From assembly GCA_951804945.1 (NCBI GenBank), contig OX638156.1, positions 35,464,001 through 35,528,000 on the forward strand: 64,000 nucleotides of DNA, read 5' to 3'. How positions within the stretch are numbered: position 1 is the first letter of the stretch; each line of letters begins with the position of its first letter. The notes under the pieces were generated by a model that saw nothing but the letters and a program-made list of their open reading frames with translations, ran no database searches and was not told the origin of the DNA. This DNA comes from Podarcis cretensis. Lineage: Eukaryota. A program made the translations under genes and the position numbers. Positions 8,165-64,000 of the stretch are shown here, piece after piece.

Positions 8165-8261
8165 ATTGGGACAGGCTCTGGTTTAAACCATGGGACCTCC
8201 TGCTGCCATTTCTCATTTGGCCCTTTGGAATATGTGGGTGTTTTGCTTTCTCCCCCTGCAG

Positions 8262-8460
8262 AAGAAGGATGTCAGGATGCTGCGCTTCATCCAGGAGGTG
8301 AACACCACCACCCGCTCGTGCTCCCTCTGGGACCTGGAAGAGGACACCGAGTACATTGTGCACGTCCAGTCCATCAGCATCCAAGGCCAGAGTCCAGCCA
8401 GCGAACCAGTCCACTTCAAGACCCCCCGGGAAGCGGAGAAACTAGCTTCCAAAAACAAAG
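8262..8460 (+). CDS. FNDC5: FNDC5 coding exon (rest of irisin domain), GC donor
   Basis: KKDVRMLRFIQEVNTTTRSCSLWDLEEDTEYIVHVQSISIQGQSPASEPVHFKTPREAEKLASKNK; acceptor ccctgcag; 199 bp ending AAAG|gcaagt keeps frame with next exon. Confidence 0.95.
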
Positions 8461-9796: not shown

Positions 9797-9889
9797 ATGA
9801 GGTGACGATGAAGGAGATGGGAGAGAAAAACCAGCAGCTGCGAGCCGGGGAGATCCTCATCATTGTCGTGGTCTTGTTCATGTGGGCAG
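9797..9889 (+). CDS. FNDC5: FNDC5 coding exon (juxtamembrane and transmembrane start)
   Basis: (D)EVTMKEMGEKNQQLRAGEILIIVVVLFMWA(G); acceptor gtgcag, donor G|gtcagt. Confidence 0.96.
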
Positions 9890-10384
9890 GTCAGTAGGAG
9901 TCCCTTAAATGCATGCAAAATAAATGCATGTATTGGGGGTTTTTGGACAGAGAATTTTGTGCACACAAAAAGACCATGAAGACACATGCGCAGGTGGTCA
10001 TAACTGGGCAGTTGTTTTCACAATATCCCCGCCTGTGTGAGTTGGATGCTTTAAAAAGTACAAGAGGAGAGGCTGCTGCCCCAATTATGTTTCCAAACCG
10101 AACACAGATCAACCAGCAGAGGAAAGAGGGCAGAGGGAGGAATGAATGTGGAAGAATATGCAGTTATTTGGGTTGCATGTGCTTGGGTTTGACTATAATC
10201 AAGTATGGAGATTATTAGAATTTTACCAACTTTAGCCCAGCTTGCACACATGTATGGTTGTTATCTTTCTAGATTTTGTTTTGTTTCCAATGTGCTCTTA
10301 TCCAGCTTGTTTCCTGGGGTGGATCTAAACACAGGGGGGAAAACGCTATAAAAAAAGTCAGAAGTTAGATTGTTAAAACAAAAG

Positions 10385-11209
10385 TGTCAGAGCTGCCCAA
10401 GGTCCCAGCTCACAAAGGACCAAAGCCAGGTCGTCATTATATACAAAAGTCTTTATTGAAGTTCAGTTTCCATTCCAAAGCCGTAGCGCGCAGCTCTACA
10501 TCTTAAACCTTAGACCGCCGAAGTTCCGTCTGAATCTCCTCCCCCCTGACACCAGTTTAAGATTCTCGCCCTGCTCTACCTCTTCCTCTGCTCTCTTCTC
10601 CTCTGGGTCCTCCTGTCCGCTGGGGCATTCCCCTTTCTGGACTCTTCTGACGCTGAGTCCCCTGACTCCTCCCCCTGTCTCCGGCGGGCTTTAGGACCCG
10701 GCTCCCAATCCTTGTTCTCTGCTGCCCCGCGCGCCTGTACTTTTGAACTTGGCTCTCGCGCCAACCCAGTGACCTTCCTCCTGACCGTTGCACTGCTTCT
10801 GTCACTGCTTCCCTCTTCCGGGATGCTAGCCGGACCTGACCTCCCCTCCGTTGCCTGACTCTCCGATGGAGGCGTGGTCAGCCCTGACTCCTCTTCTCTC
10901 CCTGCTGGGGGAGACGCTACCCCCGATACCTGGGACTCTTCCCCCCCACTATGCTCAGGTGGGGAAGCTGGTCCTGATCTCCAACTGCTGCTCTGGGAGT
11001 CCCCGCTGGTCCCTTGCTTCTGGAGTGTCCCCCTTGGGACCCCCCTTGCCCTGGCCACCGGCGCCCCCTTCTGTGAATCTTCCGATTCACTGGAGAGGCT
11101 CATGGAATCTCTCGGGCCACTGTCATCTTCTCCTACGCTGCCCTCAGATTCTTCCCCTTCGCTCTCCATCTCCCCTCTTCCCTTTGCTTCTGCTCCTGAG
11201 CCCCTGACA
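10385..11209 (-). mobile_element. Solo LTR (Gypsy/ERV-like), antisense in FNDC5 intron, containing a 197-aa ORF
   Basis: TGTCA...TGACA termini; 5-bp TSD aaaag at 10380-10384 and 11210-11214; minus-strand AATAAA at 10452-10457; CpG-rich relative to flanks. Confidence 0.85.
10576..11169 (-). CDS. Hypothetical LTR-encoded low-complexity protein (acidic N-terminus, basic C-terminus)
   Basis: ATG in good context (GAGATGG) 40 nt inside the LTR; 197 codons open; ends RRTQRRREQRKR; coding status unproven. Confidence 0.4.
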   Translation of the reverse strand: MESEGEESEGSVGEDDSGPRDSMSLSSESEDSQKGAPVARARGVPRGTLQKQGTSGDSQSSSWRSGPASPPEHSGGEESQVSGVASPPAGREEESGLTTPPSESQATEGRSGPASIPEEGSSDRSSATVRRKVTGLAREPSSKVQARGAAENKDWEPGPKARRRQGEESGDSASEESRKGNAPADRRTQRRREQRKR

Positions 11210-12859
11210 AAAAGAAAAAAATATCTATGGAAAATTGCGTTTTAAAATTTCCTGCTCTCTGTCGCCATCTGGTGCACATTCAAATAGCTATTTCTTTAGC
11301 TGAGAAACAGCTGAGTCCCTAGGGATGGGACTTGTTAGGAACTGAAATAACTTCAAAATAGCCACTCGCCTCCCTGGATAGTCCCCAGTGCCACAAGACT
11401 CTTTTGCCTTTATTTGTCCCATCAGAGGCTTGTAAATTGCCAGCCAGTCAAGATTTCTCACTATGTGCCTTCTCTGAAATTCTGAAGAAGTCTAAACAGA
11501 CAAATCAAGTGTAAATTGTCACCCTGTGCCTGCCTTGCAATCCGCTCCTGTTTCTCTGTGTTATTAGTATTTTTTACTAGAGTGCCTGTTTAACTACCCC
11601 CTGTTAAAATGACAGAATTGTTAAAACAATAAATGGCCTGAAGCATTATTTGAGCATAAACCAGCAGAATGGCAGTAAGCCCCAATCCTCTTAAAATCTA
11701 CTACCAGGAATCGAGGGGCAGGGCAGGCGTGGAGAGACAAAAAGAAAACTTTCCTGTAAGCAAAACTGCTCCCTCTGTGATAGAATCATAGAACTGTAGG
11801 TGTTGATGTGTGACCAGTTTATGAGGAAACAAGGATCCACACCGTACATTCACAGCACATCTAACACACATTTAAAACACAGAACATCCCACAAAGAACC
11901 ATGGGAATTTGATAAGGAGGGAATCACAGGTCTGCAAGGGGGAACCACACTTCCCAGGTTTGAGGAAAGCGATGTGCTTTAAATGTGTGTTGAATCTAAG
12001 GTCTGCTTTTGGAATTAAGGTTAACCTGCAATACTGGGCTTTTCTTTTTAGACTTCTTAAGAGATGTCATAAGGAAAGACTACAGATGGAAGAGTTAGAG
12101 GGGCAACTCCCCACCATCCCATAATGGTTCCTGCTCTGTCAAAATAAATAAAAGTGTGCTAGTTTATAGTCTCCATAAATATTCAAGCCCCTTCTGCTAT
12201 AATTCTGCAAGTTTGCCAGCGGGTTGTTGCCAGTGTGAGTCATTTGTAAAAACAGAAGGCTTGGACGTGCGTTGAACTCATATCCTCACATTTTTACGCC
12301 CTATAAACCCAGATGTGTGGTGTAGGTGAGGAAGCCTGTACTTTCTGCACATGCCCAGAGACTCCTGTTCTTTATTGTTTCTCTTCTTCCATCTATATCG
12401 ACTGCTCTGTATATTTAGGTGTATTTGCACATATTGACATATAATTCCCCGAGCCAATGCAGAGTAGTGTCTAAGGCTGTTTCCCATACAGTCACTGTTT
12501 ACTGGTGGGATTCAGTCACATCAGGCTGCACAATTAAAACTGATCTGGAGCTCTTGTGAAACAATACCTCTCCTCCACCTGGAAAGATTGGACGGGATAA
12601 GGAACATGATAGGAAATGCACTGGAAAGAGGAGGATAACAAGGTGGATTATCATTCAATAGCTGCCGCCGCCTAATCTCTCTGCACACAAGCCAGGCTGA
12701 ATGCTCATTAAGCAGGTTGCATGGAACCGACTTAAGGGGGTGAGCGATAAGCCCCCAGTTTAAATACTGCCTTGGCCATGAACAAATTCGGTAGCCTCAG
12801 GCATCTCTCTCTCTCAACATCAGCCCACCTTCCATCTGCAGAATGGGCATAAATATAAG

Positions 12860-35827: not shown

Positions 35828-36018
35828 ATAATTATAAATGACACATGAAAAGCCCCATCAGGCTTTAGTATTCTTGTGCACATACAAACATCAAACACAA
35901 CCCCCTCCCACCTAGGGTGCAGAGCTGCACAACAGATGCAGAGGAGAAAGCAGAGCATAGCACACCAAGACTCAAGAAAGCAAGCCTAGCTGTAGACACC
36001 AGGAAAAGCGGTGCTGAC

Positions 36019-36980
36019 CAATTTGGCTCTTTGATGCTGGGACCTTCCATATATGCCTTTCTTTGATCACCGATGGATGTGGAACAGGATGATGCAGCTT
36101 CTTCATGCAAGCCAGCAGAATCCAAATCTCCTTCAACCTCTTGAGGTAGGCTGTTTGCACTCTCTTCTCCTAGGTCATTTTGATTTAGGGAAGCCGGTTC
36201 CTTGCAGGGCCCTTCAGCTCTCTCAGGTTTTGCCATGAGCTGTCTCACTCTTTCCGAGTTATCGTCTACCACTGCCTGAGCAGCTTCTTTATCCAATATC
36301 CCAGACACATTGTCATCTTTTTGCAGATTCAAGGCAGCTGTTGCAACTGGCACAGCTTCTGGAAGAACAGAACTGTTTGAATCCAAACCAAATCCAGCTT
36401 GGTTTTGAGACCCTGTGCTCAAGTCACTCCCACTTTCTTCTGGACTTTCAGAGTCATTTCTGCAAGCACTTGAACAGACTAAAGGGTCAGCTGGAGACAG
36501 TGGCTCTGTTTTTCTAGACTCTAGATCTAGAGTACCAGAAGGTTTAGAAGATCCTAATGAACAAAAAATTCTAACATGTTCTGCATCTGGTTCAAATGCT
36601 ACGGAATTCGAGGTCTCCGAGCAGCGTGGTTGACTATCTGACAAAAGTTCATCTTCAGCTTCAGAAGTGAGTCCAGTGGAAAAGTCTGAGAGCTCCCCAT
36701 CTGAAGGATCCAGTAAGCTGTCATCTAGTATGTCATCTGTGTTGCTATTATCAGGCTGTCCATTGGTGGTCACAGAACACACTGCAGAAACTGCTATTCC
36801 ATTGCTTGATGAGGAAGGATCTGCAAGTGCACCAAAAGGCAAGCAGGAGAGTTTGTGTCTCTTTGTGTCTGGTTGCTCCTCCTCTTGAAAATCTTCGAAG
36901 GACCGCTTGCTCCTGGAAACTAAATCATTTAAGAAAGTGACTTTTAGATTTAAACGGGAGCGGAAAGTGCTACTTGCCAT
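36019..36980 (-). CDS. S100PBP: S100PBP large first coding exon
   Basis: Acidic/Ser-rich ORF with DILDDSLLDPSDGE (mammalian DGLDDSLLELSEGE); strong Kozak ATCATGG; acceptor candidates 37120 or 37052; donor TTG|gtcagc at 36019 chosen because it is phase 2 (uncertain); synteny with YARS1 and FNDC5. Confidence 0.8.
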
Positions 36981-38109
36981 GATGCTGTTTGCACTGATTC
37001 TTTCTTTCTTTCCTTTTTAAAAGTAACCCTTTGCTACCATGTTCACTCCAGACTAGAAGAAGCCAAGCAAGGGAAATCTATACTCAAGGCTTCCCTTCAG
37101 CCAAAGTGGTTCTCAGTTGCCTGTAAGAAAGAACAGGACAAAATAGAAGCTAGTTGAAGAAATCTCATGCTCTCCTTCCCCTGCAACTGCATCTGTGCTA
37201 GAAGAAATCTACTCCACTGCAATTGCTCTTCTCCTCTGAAGACTACACTACCTAACAAATGTCTCACTCAGATTCATTACAGCTGTTCTAATAAAACATT
37301 ATTTAACTCACATACAAATAAGAAAAGCTGACTAAAAAATGAAACAAAGAATTTTTCATAGAGATAGTTAAATGGTATTTTTTTTTCTTACACATACTCC
37401 AAAGTTTACATTTTATAAATGTAAATTTAAGAGCCAACATGGGCCAGTGCTAAAGAGTTGGAGATGCTAGATCAGAGATGAGTTCAAAAAGAACTCTATT
37501 TTACAATCACCTGTAAATAGGAATACTAGTTATCTACCTTTACATGGTTCTTTGAACCCTTTGCAAAATTAAGGTTTCAGCTTTAAGTACATTTATTTGA
37601 AAGCAAGTGTTACTGCTCTCTATGAGGATTGCTTCCAAGTGAGGCAAAAAAACATTGTAAGCAACTGATCAGTCACCTTGCTCTTCCCCACTCCTGCATT
37701 ATTGAGATCTAAGATACAGCTCACATCCAAACACGATTATATCGGAATTCTGGCTTGTGATTTGTTTGGAACTACTAAACCAATGTTCAGACACAACCCT
37801 AGTAGCTCCCAGTAGCACTGCAGGTGCAAGGAGGAGCAATGTTGCCTCATTTGTCTCCCTGTGCACTTGCAGACTGCATATTCACTTTTGTTTTAATACC
37901 TGATGTTAGCAGCCCTGAGCCCAGTCTTGGCCAGGGAGAGGGGGGTATAAATAAATTTTTTTATTATTATTAATTTATTATTATTAAAGTGCAAACAAGG
38001 CCACTGTCCAATAACAATCAAGTATTTTTAAAACATTAAATTGGAACAAGAAGAAAATTCAGTCACTTTCAGATTTGATACTTTTACAGTTTACAAACAC
38101 ACCAAGATA

Positions 38110-49451: not shown

Positions 49452-51017
49452 TAGAGGATTTTATTATGGGGAGTAGCAGGCAACCTGATTGGCTGAAAGG
49501 TCAATCTAGAGGTGAAGGGCTGAGTCACATCCCTTCCTCTTCCACCTGTGTCCCCTCCCTGCTTACCTGAAGCCCCAAGTATGTAGCAGAGCCTGAATAT
49601 TAGGGCGTTATTTTAGGGGCTGAAACTTTTTTTTTTTTTCAAATTTCTTCAATGAGGGATTTTAAAACTCTGTTCTTGGTATAAGGAATTCAAATCTATT
49701 CTTTTTAGCTTGGTAAGTACGTTTGACAAAGAAGCACTTAAACTGTTTTTGGAAAACCAAAGAATTTTTAATTTTACCTCCTGAAAACGTCAGGTAATGT
49801 TTAATAATAATAACAGCGAGTAGATTGGCCATCATTTTTAATGATTTCTATGCAATTTTACATACATTTTATGTACCAAGCAAAACTAAATTCTATTCAT
49901 TTAACCAAAATATCTTTTGAATTCCCAAGTCGTGTTACAATATTTTAGCACCCTTCCTTTTAGCAAATTCCTTTTTTGAATTTGAAAGTTGAAAAATTCA
50001 GCATGCCCTGCTGTTTATGTCTGGCAGTTTCCCTTCTCTCCTGGCTGGGATGGAAAGGCTCCCTTTTAATCACTAAAAGGGCATTTTAGTGGCACCACAG
50101 AGGGTCTGTGTGGTGCTTGCATGCAGGCCAGTTCCTTTTCTGTGAAGGGAAGCCGTAGCATCACAGAGCTGGAGGGGACCGTGGATGCTAGCTAGTCCAC
50201 TCCCCGCTCCATACCAGAATGTCCAAGCTAGACAGATGGCCGGCCCACTTCTGCCTGAAGACCTCTTGGCCAGGGAAATCCCACCCATCCCTCTCACTCA
50301 TTGGCTCCATTGTCAAAATGCTCTTTATCCTAGCATGTTACCCAAACCCTCTCCTCCTGCAACATGAGCTCTGGCTTCTGGGCAGCAGCAAAGAACAGGC
50401 CTTTGCCTCTGCTCTGTATGTGTGAGAGAAATACACCGTAGGTGTTTGAAAGTGCTGTCGCATCCCCACTCAGTCTCCTCCAGGCTAAACATACCCAGGG
50501 TTTCTTTGCCCTTTCCTTGTAGGGCTTGTCTTCCCTGCCCATGACCATCTTCCCTACCCTCCTAAGAGCCCATACCAGTTTGTTTTCCTGAACATGAATC
50601 ATCCAGAACTGGAACGTACATGAGGGTTACCAGTCCAGCCTGACGCTTGGGGCCTCAAACCCTTTCTAGACCCGCTTATACTTGGGAGTAAGTCAGCCAG
50701 ACAGAGGATCCATTAACTTCACCATCAGCTCCTTTGAAATACCTTTTGTGGGCATGTGCCCAGGGAAGAACAGGGATTTGCCTTGCTGCTGCTACAGGGG
50801 AGGGCAGGGAAGGGAACATGACGCCCTTGGTCTTGGTCCTCCTTCGCCATCATCAGTGTATCCCCTGCAACCTGAAGGGCTTTGAAGCTTTTTTAAAAAC
50901 TGACATTTTGAGGACCTTGGATACGAACCCCCCACACCTGCAGTGTTCTTGTGACTCCTCAAATGTACACCACTCTGTTAATGCGGATCTTCAAATCTTT
51001 CTTTTTCCCCGCTGCAG

Positions 51018-51103
51018 AGTTTGTGATTCTTCGAGATGAGAAGTGGGGAGGGAATAAAACTTACACCCACTACGGAGACCTCGAGAAAGACTTTGCTGAC
51101 CAG
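51018..51103 (+). CDS. YARS1: YARS1 coding exon 8
   Basis: [29 protein letters not shown]; 86 bp. Confidence 0.97.
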
Positions 51104-51757
51104 GTGACACACTGGGATGCGGGTGGGGTAGGGAAGTGGCCAGCTGCCAGGGGTGGGGTGGGGGGCTCCTGGGGTCCTTGTTGTTGCTTTGTATGTGGGA
51201 AGAACCTCCTCGTGGAACGGCTCTGCTGGACTTGCATGAAGGGCTTGGGCTATCCTGCCAGGCAGACTCTGAGACCTGGCAGCAGTTGTGTGTTGATGGT
51301 GGGAGACCCTGACCTTTTGCTCTGCATGCCCACCTGGGGGGGGGGGTTGCATCAGAGGCCCGCAAGGGGAAGCTGAGTCACAGGGAGGGGCTCTAGACTG
51401 ACAAAGAATTGTGTTGCACATCCCCTAAAGCAACAACTCTGCAGTCGTAATGATTGCAAACCAGACATTCTCACAGAATTTGCATAGGTCAGATGTACAG
51501 AAACACTGCTGTTCTGCATAAATCAGACTCTCTGCCCCTTTTAATTTCTGTCTTACCAGCTGAGCAATATGTGGAATGTTTTTCCAGTGAAGCCCCATTG
51601 GCTTTCATTTTACACCACTCATCCATTCCACTGCCTCCTGCCCACCAGATTGTGCTTTGTGATTTGCGCCCACTGTTAGGAACGGCGCTGGGGACTGATG
51701 GGAACCCTCTAGGGAGAGCAGGACTAACTGGGTCTCCATCTTCTTCCATGGGTGCAG

Positions 51758-51893
51758 GTTGTCCACCCTGGCGACTTGAAGAACTCTGTGGAGGTGGCCT
51801 TGAACAAGCTCCTTGAGCCCATCAGAGAGAAGTTCAACAGCTCACAAATGAAGAAACTGGCCAGCTCTGCGTATCCTGATCCTTCCAAAGCAA
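51758..51893 (+). CDS. YARS1: YARS1 coding exon 9
   Basis: [45 protein letters not shown]; 136 bp. Confidence 0.97.
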
Positions 51894-52879
51894 GTAAGGG
51901 CTGAAAGGCATCTGCTGTTGGTCCATCTAGTTCAGTACTGTTGACCCTGGCTGGCAGAGGCTTTCCAGGGTTTTAAGCAGGGGGCATTCCCAGCCCTTCC
52001 TGGAGGAGATGCTGCTTGGGATTGAACCTGGGACTTCTCCATGCAAAGCAGAGGCTCCACCCCTGAGGCTCCAGAGCTTCCCACAGATGCTCCTGCACTC
52101 TCTGAGACCAAGAGCCCTGCAAGTTCTTTCTGGCAGGCTGATGCAGATGCCGGTCTGCCCCCACAAGGCTCTGCCCGGGTCTGGAAGATCTGACTTGCCT
52201 CCTTCACTGTCTGCAAAGCAATTGGACCTGCTAAGCGCCTCCCCTGTGGTGTGGCTCCTTCCTGGGTTCACTTTGATTGGCCAGACCCCATGTCTGTCTT
52301 GGTCCTTTTTGGCATACGCAAACACTGGGCATGAGTCTGGGTTGTTCTCTCTGGGTTGTTCTCTCTGAGACTCCTGCTCAGTTACTTGGGTCGTTTGCAC
52401 CACTCTGTTTCCCATGCCTTCCCGTTGCTTTAATTCTCCTCTCCATCCCATCCTCATCTCCTCTTGCTCATGCAAGAGAATACCAGCATCTTTTTTAAAA
52501 AATCAATTTTTATTGCAAGTTTCCCACATAAAATACAATAAAAGCCAAGCTAATCTAAAGAGAAAAGATTTTTTTAAAAAAAGACTAAGGAAGAAAATAA
52601 AGAGGTAAAAGTAAATAAAAAAGCCCTGTCACAACTGGATCCTACCCCATATTCTACCCACAAAAGAGTGAACCCTCCTAGGTCTGACCTGGGAGCTTCC
52701 CCCTCTTCTCCCAGCCTCACACACCAGGAGATCCTCTCTACCCTGCTTCTGTCACAGGGCCCTTCATTTCCCATCTATCAGTCTCCTGTCCAGCACCATT
52801 TTTGAGGCCTAGTCTCTCCAGGCTGCTGCCAGTCTTTGCAACTGCAGCTCTCCTAAAAACCTCCCTTCCCTGTCTGCAG

Positions 52880-52977
52880 AGCCTTCAGCGAAAGGCCCCA
52901 CGAAGAACTCTGACCCGGAGGAAGTAGTGCCATCTCGGGTGGACCTTCGTGTTGGCAGAGTGCTCAGCGTGGAGAAG
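52880..52977 (+). CDS. YARS1: YARS1 coding exon 10 (linker, start of EMAP II-like domain)
   Basis: [33 protein letters not shown]; 98 bp. Confidence 0.97.
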
Positions 52978-53191
52978 GTAAGCCTGCCAGGGGGCTTCCT
53001 AGAGGCAATTGGTTGACAGAAGGGTGCTGGCATCAGGACTCTTGAGAGCGTGTGCAGAGGTCTCCATCACACTCCCTGGGCCTCTGTACTGGGCTTGGGG
53101 TGCGTGGGAGATTGCAGGGTGCCTGCAACCCTGGAGGGGGCCATTCAACTTTTCACAACCGGGCTGTGACGCCGCCCTTCTCCCTTCGCAG

Positions 53192-53385
53192 CATCCTGAT
53201 GCCAACACACTGTACGTGGAGAAGATTGATGTGGGGGAGCCTGAGCCGCGGACGGTGGTCAGTGGCCTGGTGGAGCACGTGCCCAAAGAGGAGCTGCAGG
53301 ACAGGCTGGTGGTCTTGGTGTGCAACCTGAAGCCTCAGAAGATGCGGGGACTGGAGTCCCAGGCCATGGTGCTCTGCGCTTGCAG
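53192..53385 (+). CDS. YARS1: YARS1 coding exon 11 (EMAP II-like OB fold)
   Basis: [27 protein letters not shown]...[21 protein letters not shown]; 194 bp. Confidence 0.97.
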
Positions 53386-53565
53386 GTGTGTGCAGTGGAA
53401 GGTGGGGCAGGCAGACTTTGGCTCATGCAGAGGGGCTGCAAATGGATCCACTTATTGGGGGCATAAGCAGGCATTTGTTATCCCTTGGCTATGTTTTCCT
53501 GTTAGGCGAAGCGAGAGACCGACTGAAGCCTGCTTGCCGCTAACATGATTATCCTCTTCTTCCAG

Positions 53566-59383: not shown

Positions 59384-60048
59384 CTGCAAGGAGAAAAGCA
59401 GAGGCAATGGGTTTCAGAGCTGGAATCCAGCGCCTTGCGACGGGACTGCCCACCCCCCAAGCCTACAACCCTCCCTCAACCCTCAGTTCCTCAGCTATGG
59501 AGAAAGGAAGCAAGAGAGCTATGTAGAATCAACACCAGAGACAAAAACTTAAAAGCTCTCTGCCTTGTTTGGGGGTAGGGGTAAATGCTACTAGGTGTGT
59601 TGTTTTACATATATGCGCCACCCCCAGAACATAACCCCTGTGCAAGATGAAATTGTACTATATTTTAAGATGGATAACACTGTAACAAACAGCAGTAATG
59701 CTGCACTTACATCACTGGGCAACTGTAAAACAAAATACATAATTAGATTTTTTTTAAATTCTCCAGCATAGCATTCTTTTTCCTATTACTAGGAGCCCCC
59801 AAGCAGGGCAAGATGGCAACCCACCCCCTCCTGTTATTGCCCAGAAATAAGCTGGAGACATAGTCAACATGACTGGCAGAGAAAGGGCAAGAAATCAGGG
59901 CCTGCATTGGTCAAATGGTGTGAGTGTAAAGCACCATGGTCAGTCAATAACGGTTGCCCAACAACCCCCAGGACAGACCTTCCAATATCAAGTGTGTTGC
60001 CACAGCTGAAACGGGACCATTCAATCCCCACCCTGCTCAGCCCCTTAC

Positions 60049-63000
60049 CTTGTGCTGGGGGGCTCTGCAGTGGTGTTGCAGGCCCTGCCGGGGGGCTGTC
60101 ACTGCTATCCCCAAAGAGAGCGGCCTGGTGACCAGACCCCTCACTCGTAGTCCTGTCCCCAGCCACTGGCAGGGTGGAGCTCAACTCCTCAGCTCCTGCT
60201 GGCTTGGGGCTCCGGGGAGATGGCAGCTGGCCTGGCCCTAGCGAGGGCTTCCTGGCTATGGGCGGAGGGATCTTCCGGGCCTGGGGCTTTCCTGAGCCCT
60301 GCTGGGGGAGCCCCAGGGCTGCCGTGGACCGCTGACCAGAGACGTTCATCAGTTCCGCAACCAGGTTCTTCTTCAGGTTGGCCTGGGCCTCTGGGGAGGC
60401 TGAGGTGTCGATGACCAGCTTCTTGGGGCTCTTGGCGAAGATGAAGCTGGCCGTCGAAGCCGGGGACTTGTGGTGGGGGGACACTTGGTCCTCTTTCGCC
60501 TCGCCGGTGGGAGCAGCTGCTGCAGTGGGGAAAGCCGGCAGTGTCAGCCGGTGGCCAGCCTTCCTCTCAGCCCCTCTGAGGCCTGGCGCGTCTCTGGAAG
60601 ACAGTGTGGAGGCCTTCAGGCGCACGGCATCGTGCAGGGGGTTTGAAGATGTACTGCTGTCCTTCGGGGCCCTCAAGGAGAGCGACTTGCGGACAGGCTT
60701 CTGTGGGGCAGGCTGCCCCAGCTTCCCGCTGACCCCAGTGCTTGGCCCGTTCTGCTCCGCCACGGGGTTGGCTTCCGCTGGGCTCGCAGCAGGGGCGTGG
60801 GTGTCCATGTGGACCGAGCGCAGGCGGACCATCTGCAGCAGGGAAGGGGTTACAATGGGGAGGCTGGCGTCCTCCTTTGGCGTGGAGTTGCTCTTGCTGC
60901 GAGACGCCGGCTCTTTCTTAAGCTCGGGGTGGGCGCTGGCGGCAGGCTTCTTAAGGCTGGGCTGGGCTTGGAGGCTGGAGGTTGTTGCCGCTGGGCCAGT
61001 GGGCTTCCAGTGGAGGGAAGTTTCTCCTGCCACGGGGAACTTGGGAGGTGGTGGCGGCTCTGCTTGAGGAGCTGGCAGTGGTGCGGCGTCCAGCGCCCCC
61101 TGCTGCTGGATCTTGGAGGACACTCTTGTGGAGAAGGAGGGCGAAGAGGCAGGCGCTTGGCCCTCCTCTGCAAGGGCTGCTCTTTGGTTGGCCGGCTGCT
61201 CCTTCTCCGCAGGAGCTGCCACAGTGACTTGAAGGGAGGGTGTCCCCACAGCCTGCAGCTGGGGCTCTGGCAGGGGCGGCACAAAGTAGGCCTCGTCCGG
61301 GGGAGGAAAGTCGGCCATGGAGAGGTCATGAGCGTCAGGCACGGGTGGGGGCGGAGGGGGCCACAGAGGATCCGCAGGAGCGTCCGGCACGGTCTCAGAA
61401 GGTGTAGGGGCAGCTGGGGCCTCCGGAATGGAACTGGCCTTCTTCGCTGGGGGTGGTGGCGGGTGGTAGGCTGGAGGGGGAGACGGAGGAGGCGACCCGC
61501 GACTAGCTTTCAAAAGGACAGCGGGCTGTTGGTGAGGTTGGCCCGCGGGGGCCAGGGCACTGGCAGGTTTGGGTTCCGCTAGTTGGCCCTGGGTAGGTGG
61601 AGGGGAGAAAGGAGCTGGCACCTTGGGGTGAGGAGGGATAAGGAACCTGTCCATTTTATTCAGAGTGGGGGCAGCGTTGGCAGAGGGTCCTGCTGAAGGC
61701 GGGGCCGTCCCCTCCACAGCGGCTGGATCCGAGGCAGAGGAGGACAAGGATGTCAGGGAGGAGGAGACGGAGGGCCCCGGGGATTGCAGGGAGCAGACCC
61801 GCTCCGGCTTCTTTGGTTGGGGCCTCTTCTTCCCGGAGGGCGAGGCGTGGGCCACGAGGCCCTTGGTATGGAGGGTGGGCGTGCCGCTCTGACTTGAGTA
61901 CCCGCTGGAGGGCGACATTGTGCGGCCAAAGTGGTCGGGGGAGCTGTGCTTCGAGGGGACTTCCGAAGTCTCATCCACTTGCCCCTCCTCTCGGATGGTC
62001 GGGCTCCGGTGAGAGATGTTGGGAGAGCAGGCCAGGCTGTCAGAACGGAGGCTGCTGGTCTCGCTCTGCGAGGAGGGGGAGAACACTTCGTCGTCCCCGG
62101 TTAGGCTGGGGCTCCCTAGCCGCCCCGCAGCCCACGCCTCGCTGCCTTCCCGTGGGGGCCTGCGCTCTGGCATGGGGGGCAGGCCCATCGCTCTGGGTGC
62201 CCCCTCGGCCTCCAGCTGCTGAGCCTTCTTGTGCAGGGAGTACGTCCTGCGCGGGGGTGCGGGGGCTCTCTTCATCTTCCTGAGGGAGACGCTGCGGGTG
62301 GAGGAACGGTCGCTCCGCACACTCATGCTGTCTGAGCCCTCTGCTGCACTGCCGGTGCTGTAGGCGGGGGAGGCCCGCCCGCTGCTTCCGGGGGGCCGCA
62401 CCCCAAGGAGGTGGGGGGAGGCAGGGGCGGCCTTGCCGCCGTGGCAGTTTGAGCTGGTGCCGCTCATGGAGCTGAAGGTACTGAGCTGGTCCAAGTCAGG
62501 TCTAGCCGCCACCCGGACCTGTCCGTCGGGCCTGGCCTCGCCTTTCCTGCTATCAGTGCCCCCGTGTGAGGAGATGGTGGAGGTGTTCGAAACGATGGTT
62601 TCCGTGGACTGGGAATGGCTCCAGTTGTCACTGGAGGAGGAGTGCTCGCGGCTGCGGGGGCCAGAAGGGAAGCGTCCCACCGAGCGCACAGAAGCTGGGC
62701 TGGCAGTCGAGAGGCTGCAGCGGCTCAGCGTGCGCACCTTGTTACGCGAGAGGGCGATGACGTCCACCATGGGAGGCATGACGGCGTTGGGGATGATCTT
62801 CGACAGGTAGGTACCCTGCGGAGAGATGGACATGACGGGGCCCAGCAGCTCGGGGGAGCCTGGCTGGGTGGTCATCCAGGGCACAGCCAGAGACTTGGGC
62901 CTGGCCAAGGGGGACAGCTTCGCCGCCGTCTTGCGCCCCAGGAGTGAGTCGTCGTAGTAGACGCAGTTGATGTGGCGCTGGAGGGAGCTGTCGGCCTCCA

Positions 63001-63195
63001 GGGCCTCCAGGGCCTGCAGGGAGACGCGGGCACCACCCTTGGGGATGGCGGTGGGCCGTAGTTTCCCATCAACGGTGGGGATGTGGATGGCATTGCCGTG
63101 GACCTCGCCACCATTCGAGAGGGCCGGAGGGGTCGCATCAGGTCGAACGGCAATGCTGCCCGGGCGTTTCTTTGCCTCATATCCGTTGCTCAGGC
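60049..63195 (-). CDS. KIAA1522: KIAA1522/NHSL3 large Ser/Pro-rich exon (3147 bp)
   Basis: Motifs ISPQGTYLSKIIPNAVMPPMVDVIAL, SSSSDNWSHSQSTETIVS, PAPPRRTYSLH, MSPSSGYSSQSGTPT, VTPSLLQMVRLRSV, SPASTASFIFAK; acceptor ctgcttcag, donor AAG|gtaagg; synteny. Confidence 0.93.
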
Positions 63196-64000
63196 CTGAA
63201 GCAGATAACACAAAGGAGATAAGGAATGAGGGGCCAGTGGGAAAAAACTATATAGCGCAAGCAGAAGAAATGAACTTCAGTGCTCTCAAGTCCCATAAAT
63301 GCTTCTCAGTCACCTTATTGGGTAACTGATAAGATGGAGAAGGAAGTCCCAGCGGTTGGACACCAAAACTGCATGCTGAAGCTCCTGGGTCCCACCAGCC
63401 AGGAGAAGAGAATGGGAGGAAAAGGAAGGGTCTGTCCTGGTGCTGGAAGGGTCCCAGCACCAAGTGAGCCATCAGCTCAGTGGATGACCAGGAACATGAC
63501 AACTCCCTCTCAACTTCCAGTCTCCACCTTGCAAAATATAGCATGGTGGCATCTTATGCGCAGTTAACGTGTGTCATTTAAACCTTGCACAGTTGAAGGC
63601 AGGCCGGTTCAAAATGCACATGTTAAATGCATGCAATGCAGAGAGCTTAAAAGCTCTATTGTGCCTCATTTTCACAGCACTGGAAGGGCTTTTAAGCTCT
63701 CAGCCTTGCTTGGAAGTCAAGGCCTGCTCAGCGCACAGGCTCTGGAAGGGATGCTGACACAGGAGCAGTTCCAAGTGTTTTGAGCATACACATTTTCAGA
63801 ACCCTTGGAAGCAAACCCCCGCAGTTACTAACTCACATAGTTGTGCTGCTGAGGTTTAATATTTTAACTCATTTTGCATGTTAAGAGTACAAAACATATG
63901 CTTTGCATATATTTAACCAGACATCTGTGTTTCTCGTTAGACTTCTGCCCCAAAACAGCATCCAGCTTCCTGAGTCTCTCCCTGCTCCCACATCTCATCC

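Follow-up and report, generated by a model that had tools for sequence, protein, structure and literature searches.

A solo LTR in the lacertid Podarcis cretensis carries the U3-encoded integrase tail of a self-priming chromovirus

The window analysed here, 64,000 nt of Podarcis cretensis contig OX638156.1 (positions 35,464,001 to 35,528,000), contains part of the gene for FNDC5 (irisin) and, antisense to it, a solo LTR (Table 1). Besides the exon part that matches PDB 4LSD, further FNDC5 exons lie near 9802-9890 and 18430, and the LTR is situated within a later FNDC5 intron. Elsewhere in the window host exons were recognized by translation at 35865-37016 (minus strand), 50912-53548 (plus strand) and 59864-63247 (minus strand), the first of which gave no match to Pfam; presumably they resemble S100PBP, YARS1 and KIAA1522/NHSL3, respectively. 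A first-pass annotation of this DNA had described an element bounded by TGTCA and TGACA with 5-bp target site duplications (TSDs), and its coordinates were confirmed. A genome search with the LTR yielded 3820 candidates, 40 of which were scored; all 40 are 98-100% identical to it over 825 bp, in agreement with its reading as a solo LTR. The 30 nearest copies include 24 flanked by a perfect 5-bp TSD, along with three that lie behind a polypurine tract (PPT) and one that lies ahead of a primer-binding site (PBS). These TSDs and neighbours identify the window element as a minus-strand solo LTR, its orientation being set by the PPT and PBS of full-length copies.

Table 1. Features of the solo LTR and its surroundings, in window coordinates, with the satellite-bearing loci found elsewhere in the genome
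Feature	Position	Strand	Basis
Solo LTR, 825 bp, self-priming Ty3/Gypsy chromovirus (family 1, 825-bp subfamily)	10385..11209	-	Genome copies and parent element L031
TSD, left copy, AAAAG	10380..10384		Read in sequence
TSD, right copy, AAAAG	11210..11214		Read in sequence
U3 frame, equivalent to the last 232 codons of Pol/integrase of full-length elements; premature stop in this copy	10510..11208	-	Continuity and dN/dS
197-aa ORF, from an internal non-conserved ATG to the premature stop	10576..11169	-	ORF list, copy comparison
Conserved Arg-rich C-terminal motif region (last 52 codons), shortened here by the early stop	10513..10668	-	Alignments; predicted helix and H2A-H2B contact modelled in an intact relative
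TATA-like element (TTAAA 10556-10560), within the coding frame	10555..10561	-	Position observed; function inferred
Self-primer of 11 nt, matching the PBS of full-length copies by complementarity and inferred to form the 5' end of R	10521..10531	-	Co-variation, 5 sequence variants
Polyadenylation signal AATAAA	10452..10457	-	Read in sequence
FNDC5 (irisin) exon part	8259..8402	+	PDB 4LSD, E 3.7e-27
Satellite-bearing fetched loci	L112, L103, L187, L192, L193, L198, L199, L202; C1:141.17-141.30 Mb

The minus-strand ORF highlighted by the first-pass annotation also proved to be as described, with its ATG at 11169, 40 nt inside the terminus, a stop codon at 10576-10578, a product of 197 aa and TTAAA and AATAAA at the positions reported. 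The frame is, however, already open from LTR base 2 (11208), upstream of that ATG, and is 232 codons long where copies are intact. Read from that ATG, the product is 219 aa long, 22 codons more than in the window copy, in 21 of the 30 nearest copies, which end at a stop equivalent to 10510-10512; the early 197-aa stop is common to three of the 30, the window copy included, and the frame is broken otherwise in six. In the window copy the early stop falls inside the predicted terminal helix discussed below and, given this premature stop and the antisense position in the FNDC5 intron, the copy likely makes no protein. In dinucleotide shuffles, stop-free stretches of at least 197 codons in any frame occurred in 109 of 2000 cases and of at least 232 codons in 32 of 2000; the length of the ORF is thus only marginal evidence, and it is selection and the continuity with Pol that make the case for coding. 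Pfam has no family for the LTR ORF, nor for a plus-strand ORF of 113 aa. Internal repeats were considered as the origin of the ORF and rejected, only short two-copy matches being present.

The proposal that the host element is a squamate Gypsy retrotransposon was upheld by the identification of a full-length parent, L031. This 6.7-kb copy has Gag (capsid, CCHC) and then PR-RT-RH-IN-SH3 (Pfam) between a pair of LTRs; with the TSDs of family copies, this is the organization of Ty3/Gypsy elements. The PBS of L031 is the complement of 11 nt within the LTR and has no tRNA match. A perfect 11-nt match between PBS and self-primer is present in 10 of 14 elements of the window's family (family 1) and in eight of 12 elements of a related family (family 2); within family 1, PBS and R co-vary across five sequence variants, and the fold of L031 is further evidence. 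Family 1 therefore shows the self-priming that is a described trait of the Tf1/Sushi group (PMC6317226). An IQ-TREE analysis of RT-RH-IN (a quick search on 47 of 50 rows, three short alignments having been dropped, with no named Sushi or Amn sequence included) places the family in a squamate group (SH-aLRT 97) inside the vertebrate chromovirus group (99), for which the name V-clade is in use (PMC2774666). The chromodomain segment of family 1 has no Pfam Chromo match, although it can be aligned with those chromodomains of family 2 that Pfam recognizes. We conclude that the family of the window element belongs to the Tf1/Sushi (V-clade) chromoviruses, with a chromodomain that appears degenerate.

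With respect to expression, the TATA-like word stands about 25-30 nt before the inferred transcription start (10531), which itself precedes the family stop at 10510-10512 by about 20 nt. With a start so close to its end, the frame, which spans U3, should be untranscribable from the promoter of its own LTR. Two sets of assembled contigs, guessed to be RNA, cover the LTR and internal parts with no joint among those listed, a result that is neutral as to splicing. In the overlap of Gag and Pol a GGGAAAC heptamer (L034:3164) is a likely -1 frameshift site, presumably with a likeness to the PEG10 type.

The first-pass annotation took the ORF for a candidate stand-alone accessory protein. This is not supported, because in intact elements and in Podarcis proteins the U3 frame continues that of Pol. 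The 150 best RT matches include 64 whose open frame measures exactly 1563 codons, and for 69 it is 1554 codons or longer. In all five long-frame copies among 20 that were fetched, Pol crosses first the chromodomain-like segment and then the PPT, enters the 3' LTR and ends at the LTR stop; the LTR pairs of these copies are 99.3-100% identical, and the copies belong to a sister subfamily with 759-bp LTRs and an RT that is 89% identical in DNA. In the window's own subfamily 27 PPT/3'-LTR junctions were found, three of which lack an upstream anchor. Of the 24 that were scored, 12 are in frame and five run from the chromodomain to the LTR stop; the other 12 are out of frame, with slippage, decay and assembly error being indistinguishable as causes. 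The indels that subfamily members have in common at the junction measure +18 and +3; those that break the frame are for the most part single-nucleotide changes in G runs. The tail is fused behind integrase or chromodomain in the Podarcis proteins P0002-P0007, P0010 and P0013. Taken together, it is very probable that the U3 frame is the tail of Pol, translated and selected. One gene model, P0008, a Podarcis muralis phospholipid-transporting ATPase, ends in the LTR tail motif of family 2, as the result either of an exonised LTR or of an annotation artefact.

Comparisons between subfamilies (36 non-independent pairs) bear out the suggestion that the U3 sequence is coding, in that dN/dS is lowest in the Pol frame, at 0.20-0.48, with the remaining sense frames at 0.72-4.98. 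At an assumed ts/tv of 4 the values are 0.34-0.57, with P from 5e-3 to 7e-8, in seven of seven pairs. The Pol segment just before the LTR gives 0.40-0.51, and RT 0.05-0.08. Within the last 52 codons selection is significant in six of the seven pairs and non-significant in one. Subfamily indels in the U3 frame preserve it (+3, +63 and +3), and those after the stop are mostly of 1 nt. The U3 frame is thus under purifying selection (dN/dS about 0.25-0.57), which is weak beside that on RT. Since the motif overlaps the TATA element and the self-primer, part of its conservation may operate at the DNA level; synonymous variants without the TATA-like word do exist (six of 68 and eight of 24 LTRs).

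The low-complexity, acidic-then-basic character of the product, pointed out in the first-pass annotation, recurs with the same layout in three families. The 'NLS-like end' corresponds to only the first half of a longer motif that is conserved but lost in the window copy. Family 2, the RT of which is ~69% identical to that of family 1, has LTRs of 405-435 bp and a Pfam chromodomain, is self-primed and has a Pol that enters the 3' LTR; 21 of its 24 LTR frames are open, and dN/dS is <1 in the Pol frame in 28 of 28 pairs and >1 off frame in 56 of 56. The motifs of families 1 and 2 align as RR-x3-R-x-E-x-R-x8-L-x-W, with modest hhalign values (probability 59%, E 9e-5), and the last Trp is at the same distance from the self-primer in both, although MAFFT on long sequences set the family-2 motif against a different, internal Trp. 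Family 3 (RT 52% identical) is represented by L132 (C12:54.33 Mb), in which a single Gag-Pol frame of 1544 codons proceeds 354 nt into a 652-bp LTR. There are 47 RT copies of this family at ≥80% identity, three of five long copies read through into the LTR, and eight of eight LTR frames are open through an RRSARL motif, a sequence that the window's family lacks. The acidic-patch consensus of HMGN proteins reads RRSARLSA (PMC13347269). All three tails, of 100-232 codons, are acidic first and have 9-11 Arg in their last 45 residues; those of families 1-2 do not align with that of family 3. A fourth, decayed element (L142) was also noted, in which the integrase frame likewise enters an LTR-like repeat with an acidic-then-basic frame.

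The chromodomain of 105 other related proteins is followed by a median of 17 aa; 12 of them have more than 100 aa there, and these include gene-model fusions and Podarcis copies. A profile search of 1.84 billion representatives gave six matches, four being real tails (one from Podarcis lilfordi) and two repeat artefacts, with none of the matches to the family-1/2 motif coming from a named non-lacertid; the named homologues of the tail are all from Podarcis. A PDB search with the motif profile found nothing below E 0.18, and a Protein Atlas search with the tail end gave no usable match, which says nothing on novelty or absence. At the protein level, P0035, which the tree places as sister of a Naja protein, shares the PPT-like junction, followed by a 123-aa acidic-then-Arg tail; judged from its protein sequence, it hints that the layout may extend beyond lacertids. 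The Anolis protein P0036 ends 16 aa past its chromodomain.

Modelling gives some indication of what the tail may do. AlphaFold2 predicts that residues 7-41 of the final 52 form a helix (mean pLDDT 64). In a predicted complex of the family-1 motif with the genome's own H2A-H2B the score was 0.66, the best of three controls, which were not arginine-rich, reaching 0.02; in a calibration that excludes peptides, the mark for this score was reached by 51/78 solved complexes and by 2/108 mismatched pairs (eukaryotes: 39/65 and 2/126). The runs agree in at least 57% of contacts, with partner pLDDT of at least 57. The predicted contacts are with H2A residues 58-69 and 90 and H2B residues 48-49 and 110-118, which we take to be the acidic-patch face. 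Given the possible memory of solved arginine-anchor peptides and controls that were not arginine-rich, the docking result is only a lead, and in our judgement it is evenly balanced whether the terminal helix acts as a chromatin tether at the H2A-H2B acidic patch, as these models suggest. There are precedents for both elements of the idea: foamy-virus Gag and MLV p12 have been reported to anchor to the acidic patch, and in Ty1 and Ty5 integrase itself bears the targeting domain (PMC11054761).

The explanation we favour is that the window holds a solo LTR of a young chromovirus, in which the open frame is an integrase tail filling U3, its helix being a predicted nucleosome tether that may bias insertion; taken as a whole, this is probable. 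In intact copies a single ORF spans Pol and the U3 frame, purifying selection acts on the latter, and PBS and R co-vary as an 11-nt self-primer. Genomic RNA would begin at the self-primer, ~20 nt before the stop of the frame, such that U3 would be transcribed only at the 3' end of that RNA and the tail would be translated as the end of Gag-Pol after a -1 frameshift. Reverse transcription would then duplicate the U3 frame in the two LTRs, and this would account for its passive presence in every solo LTR. The acidic, Ser/Pro-rich part is predicted to serve as a flexible spacer, with the terminal helix binding the acidic patch.

Other explanations have to be weighed against this. A stand-alone accessory protein, made from its own U3 ATG on a subgenomic RNA in the manner of MMTV sag or foamy-virus Bel, would be in keeping with the good Kozak context of the ATG (G at -3 and +4), which is kept in young subfamilies, with a product that is acidic then basic, and with the partial proteins P0011 and P0012, which begin inside the tail. 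The ATG, however, gives way to a Thr, Ala or Glu codon in four of the 13 elements matching the window copy in length that were read, the database proteins P0002, P0003 and P0013 have Thr or Leu in its place, the U3 frame of the sister family in L054 has no Met anywhere, both the frame and the selection on it extend upstream via the PPT into Pol, and the inferred transcription start lies at the end of the frame; this reading is very unlikely. An ORF arising by chance in purine-rich LTR DNA is hardly credible. The first-pass annotation had itself cautioned that such DNA gives long ORFs by chance, and as regards length the caution stands, with 5.5% of shuffles reaching 197 codons; moreover one antisense frame is nearly open (0-2 stops). 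That antisense frame, however, shares third positions with the sense frame and has stops in nine of 15 LTRs, and the frame-specific dN/dS <1, the in-frame indels, the fusion to Pol and the layout common to three families all contradict a chance origin.

The two remaining alternatives accept that the tail is made as part of Gag-Pol. It might then be released by protease as a small nuclear or chromatin protein like MLV p12, an idea to which the long low-complexity spacer between chromodomain and motif, the predicted docking and the acidic-patch anchors of MLV p12 and foamy-virus Gag (PMC11054761) lend some plausibility; but no cleavage site was identified, a cut tether would need another link to the integration complex, and the targeting domains of Ty1 and Ty5 remain on integrase (same source), so that we consider release unlikely. 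Alternatively, the tail could be tolerated read-through without a specific job, selection keeping the frame open and disordered while promoter and self-primer DNA fix its last codons. The dN/dS of the tail, which is 5-10 times that of RT, its variable length and the failure of families 1-2 to align with family 3 are compatible with this, as are the plant Bingo elements, which read into the LTR too (PMC3605345), and the 17 of 94 loosely matched other Tf1/Sushi Pol proteins (Podarcis included) that at the protein level end just past a PPT-like Gly-Gly-x-Val. Against it are the synonymous excess across the whole U3 frame, a dN well below dS in the last 45 codons of family 2 in 28 of 28 pairs, and the retention of the acidic-then-Arg layout in three families when the median tail in the 105 other proteins is so short; tolerated read-through is a lesser possibility, and a functional integrase tail is the reading we retain.

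Whether an integrase tail of this kind influences where the elements reside is less clear. Within 1 Mb of a chromosome end lie 49 of 150 family-1 RT matches vs 2.5% expected, the other 101 being interior; the corresponding counts are 6/150 for CR1, 18/150 for family-2 SH3 matches and 2/47 for family 3. Intact copies are at ends in 17 of 69 cases for family 1 and two of 39 for family 2, and broken family-1 copies are more end-biased than intact ones (32/81 vs 17/69). In the window's subfamily, none of the 36 closest LTR copies other than 3' LTRs is within 1 Mb of an end, and some end copies have common flanks or are nested. The excess of broken copies, the common flanks and the 0/36 count for window-subfamily LTRs indicate that retention and duplication contribute to the end bias. 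Because families 2 and 3 share the motif or RRSARL, and their intact copies are not crowded at ends, an acidic-patch tether alone cannot explain the bias. It is doubtful that the crowding at satellite-bearing ends is owed to the tether and not to the chromodomain or to selective retention. Purifying selection in chromosome arms has been offered as an alternative to targeting (PMC3059260). In seven of 14 sampled chromosome ends the outermost 2 kb is mostly Gypsy (L097, L098, L102, L104, L107, L108 and L111), and terminal Gypsy sequence was twice found directly beside telomere repeats.

The satellite in question is AT-rich (37% GC) with a unit of ~480-510 bp, is located near one end of 13 chromosomes and forms a higher-order repeat of ~2.5 kb on C1; a DNA search for it matched the C1 array and so maps that chromosome only. 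At the opposite ends of C1, C6, C9 and C15, 20 windows were sampled and none contained it. Seven of 40 fetched end copies adjoin the satellite, at several monomer positions, and three of these have perfect TSDs. On the 13 satellite chromosomes 31 RT matches are at the satellite end and six at the other, a count that is partly circular, since the satellite was sought at element-rich ends. As most Lacertini have acrocentric chromosomes (PMC10654178), the satellite end is the likely centromere, and the ~500-bp repeat is a candidate centromeric satellite. Two samples of it contained no CENP-B-box-like word, and no description of it was found in the open-access literature. A 502-bp repeat in L038 was rejected as an instance of it, being a different sequence. 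Insertions in L113, L123, L149 and L116, on different chromosomes, lie at or near monomer position ~86-96 with flanks ~88-90% alike, from which the recurrent position could be either an insertion hot spot or the outcome of sequence exchange between arrays.

The LTR ORF is thus a real feature that was misread as a separate gene: it is what a dead solo LTR passively retains of a selected integrase tail encoded in U3. What appeared to be an orphan LTR gene becomes a new integrase module, and a promoter region doubles as selected coding sequence in three families with RTs 52-69% alike. The open literature searched yielded no vertebrate chromovirus described as having a Pol that fills U3, although annotation in Repbase, Dfam or GyDB may exist, and the available portions of PMC3601003, PMC11011659 and PMC12159745 contain no mention of vertebrate Pol in U3. 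If the tail is a nucleosome tether, it would provide a short peptide with which to study the access of vertebrate LTR retrotransposons to chromatin and their choice of insertion sites; the family together with the satellite may then mark lacertid centromeres. For annotators there is a caution, in that many solo LTRs carry the frame passively and at least one gene model (P0008) has absorbed it.

Among known systems, the U3-encoded retroviral genes MMTV sag and lentiviral nef are alike in having coding sequence inside U3 that ends near the U3/R border. Those genes have their own start codon and a subgenomic RNA, whereas the lizard U3 frame is fused to Pol and has no conserved start of its own. 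The likeness to the Tf1/Sushi V-clade, e.g. Amn and Sushi-ichi, is closer, extending to a CCHC Gag, PR-RT-RH-IN with SH3 and a chromodomain(-like) segment after IN (PMC2774666 and PMC6317226), the lack of env, self-priming, TG..CA LTRs, a 5-bp TSD and a tree position with fish, amphibian and reptile relatives. Unlike these relatives, the lizard Pol runs at least 370 residues past the chromodomain and fills U3, and the family-1 chromodomain appears degenerate, without a Pfam match. As a short Arg-rich motif on a low-complexity chain, the tail also resembles the acidic-patch arginine anchors of HMGN, Dsup and Dot5, foamy-virus Gag and MLV p12 (PMC13347269, PMC11054761), with RRSARL present in family 3 and the family-1 helix predicted onto the same H2A-H2B face. 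It differs from them in being part of Pol/integrase and U3-encoded, in that the family-1/2 motif is not HMGN-like, and in that its binding is predicted.

The only described parallel that we found for the overall arrangement is plant CRM group A, in which the coding region enters the 3' LTR and encodes there a CR motif tied to centromere targeting (PMC3059260); beet Bingo elements also read into the LTR (PMC3605345). The Pol of the lizard element likewise extends into the 3' LTR (cf. PMC3059260, PMC3605345 and PMC6317226). In contrast to CRM elements, which are primed by tRNA-Met, the lizard element belongs to the vertebrate clade and is self-primed, and its chromodomain(-like) segment is kept upstream of the PPT, whereas that of CRM is replaced by the CR motif. 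In searches of the tail against Pfam and the PDB, no Pfam or sequence likeness to the CR motif was found. Most lizard copies (101/150) are dispersed in chromosome interiors, with enrichment at the satellite-bearing, likely centromeric ends. It is a speculative extension, to which we give little weight, that the family is a lacertid counterpart of plant CRM, recently active, with a U3-encoded nucleosome-binding tail and a preference for satellite ends or likely centromeres, and that such tails are general and overlooked in squamate chromoviruses. On the evidence of its organization, the lizard element works like CRM in layout and is not a member of CRM.
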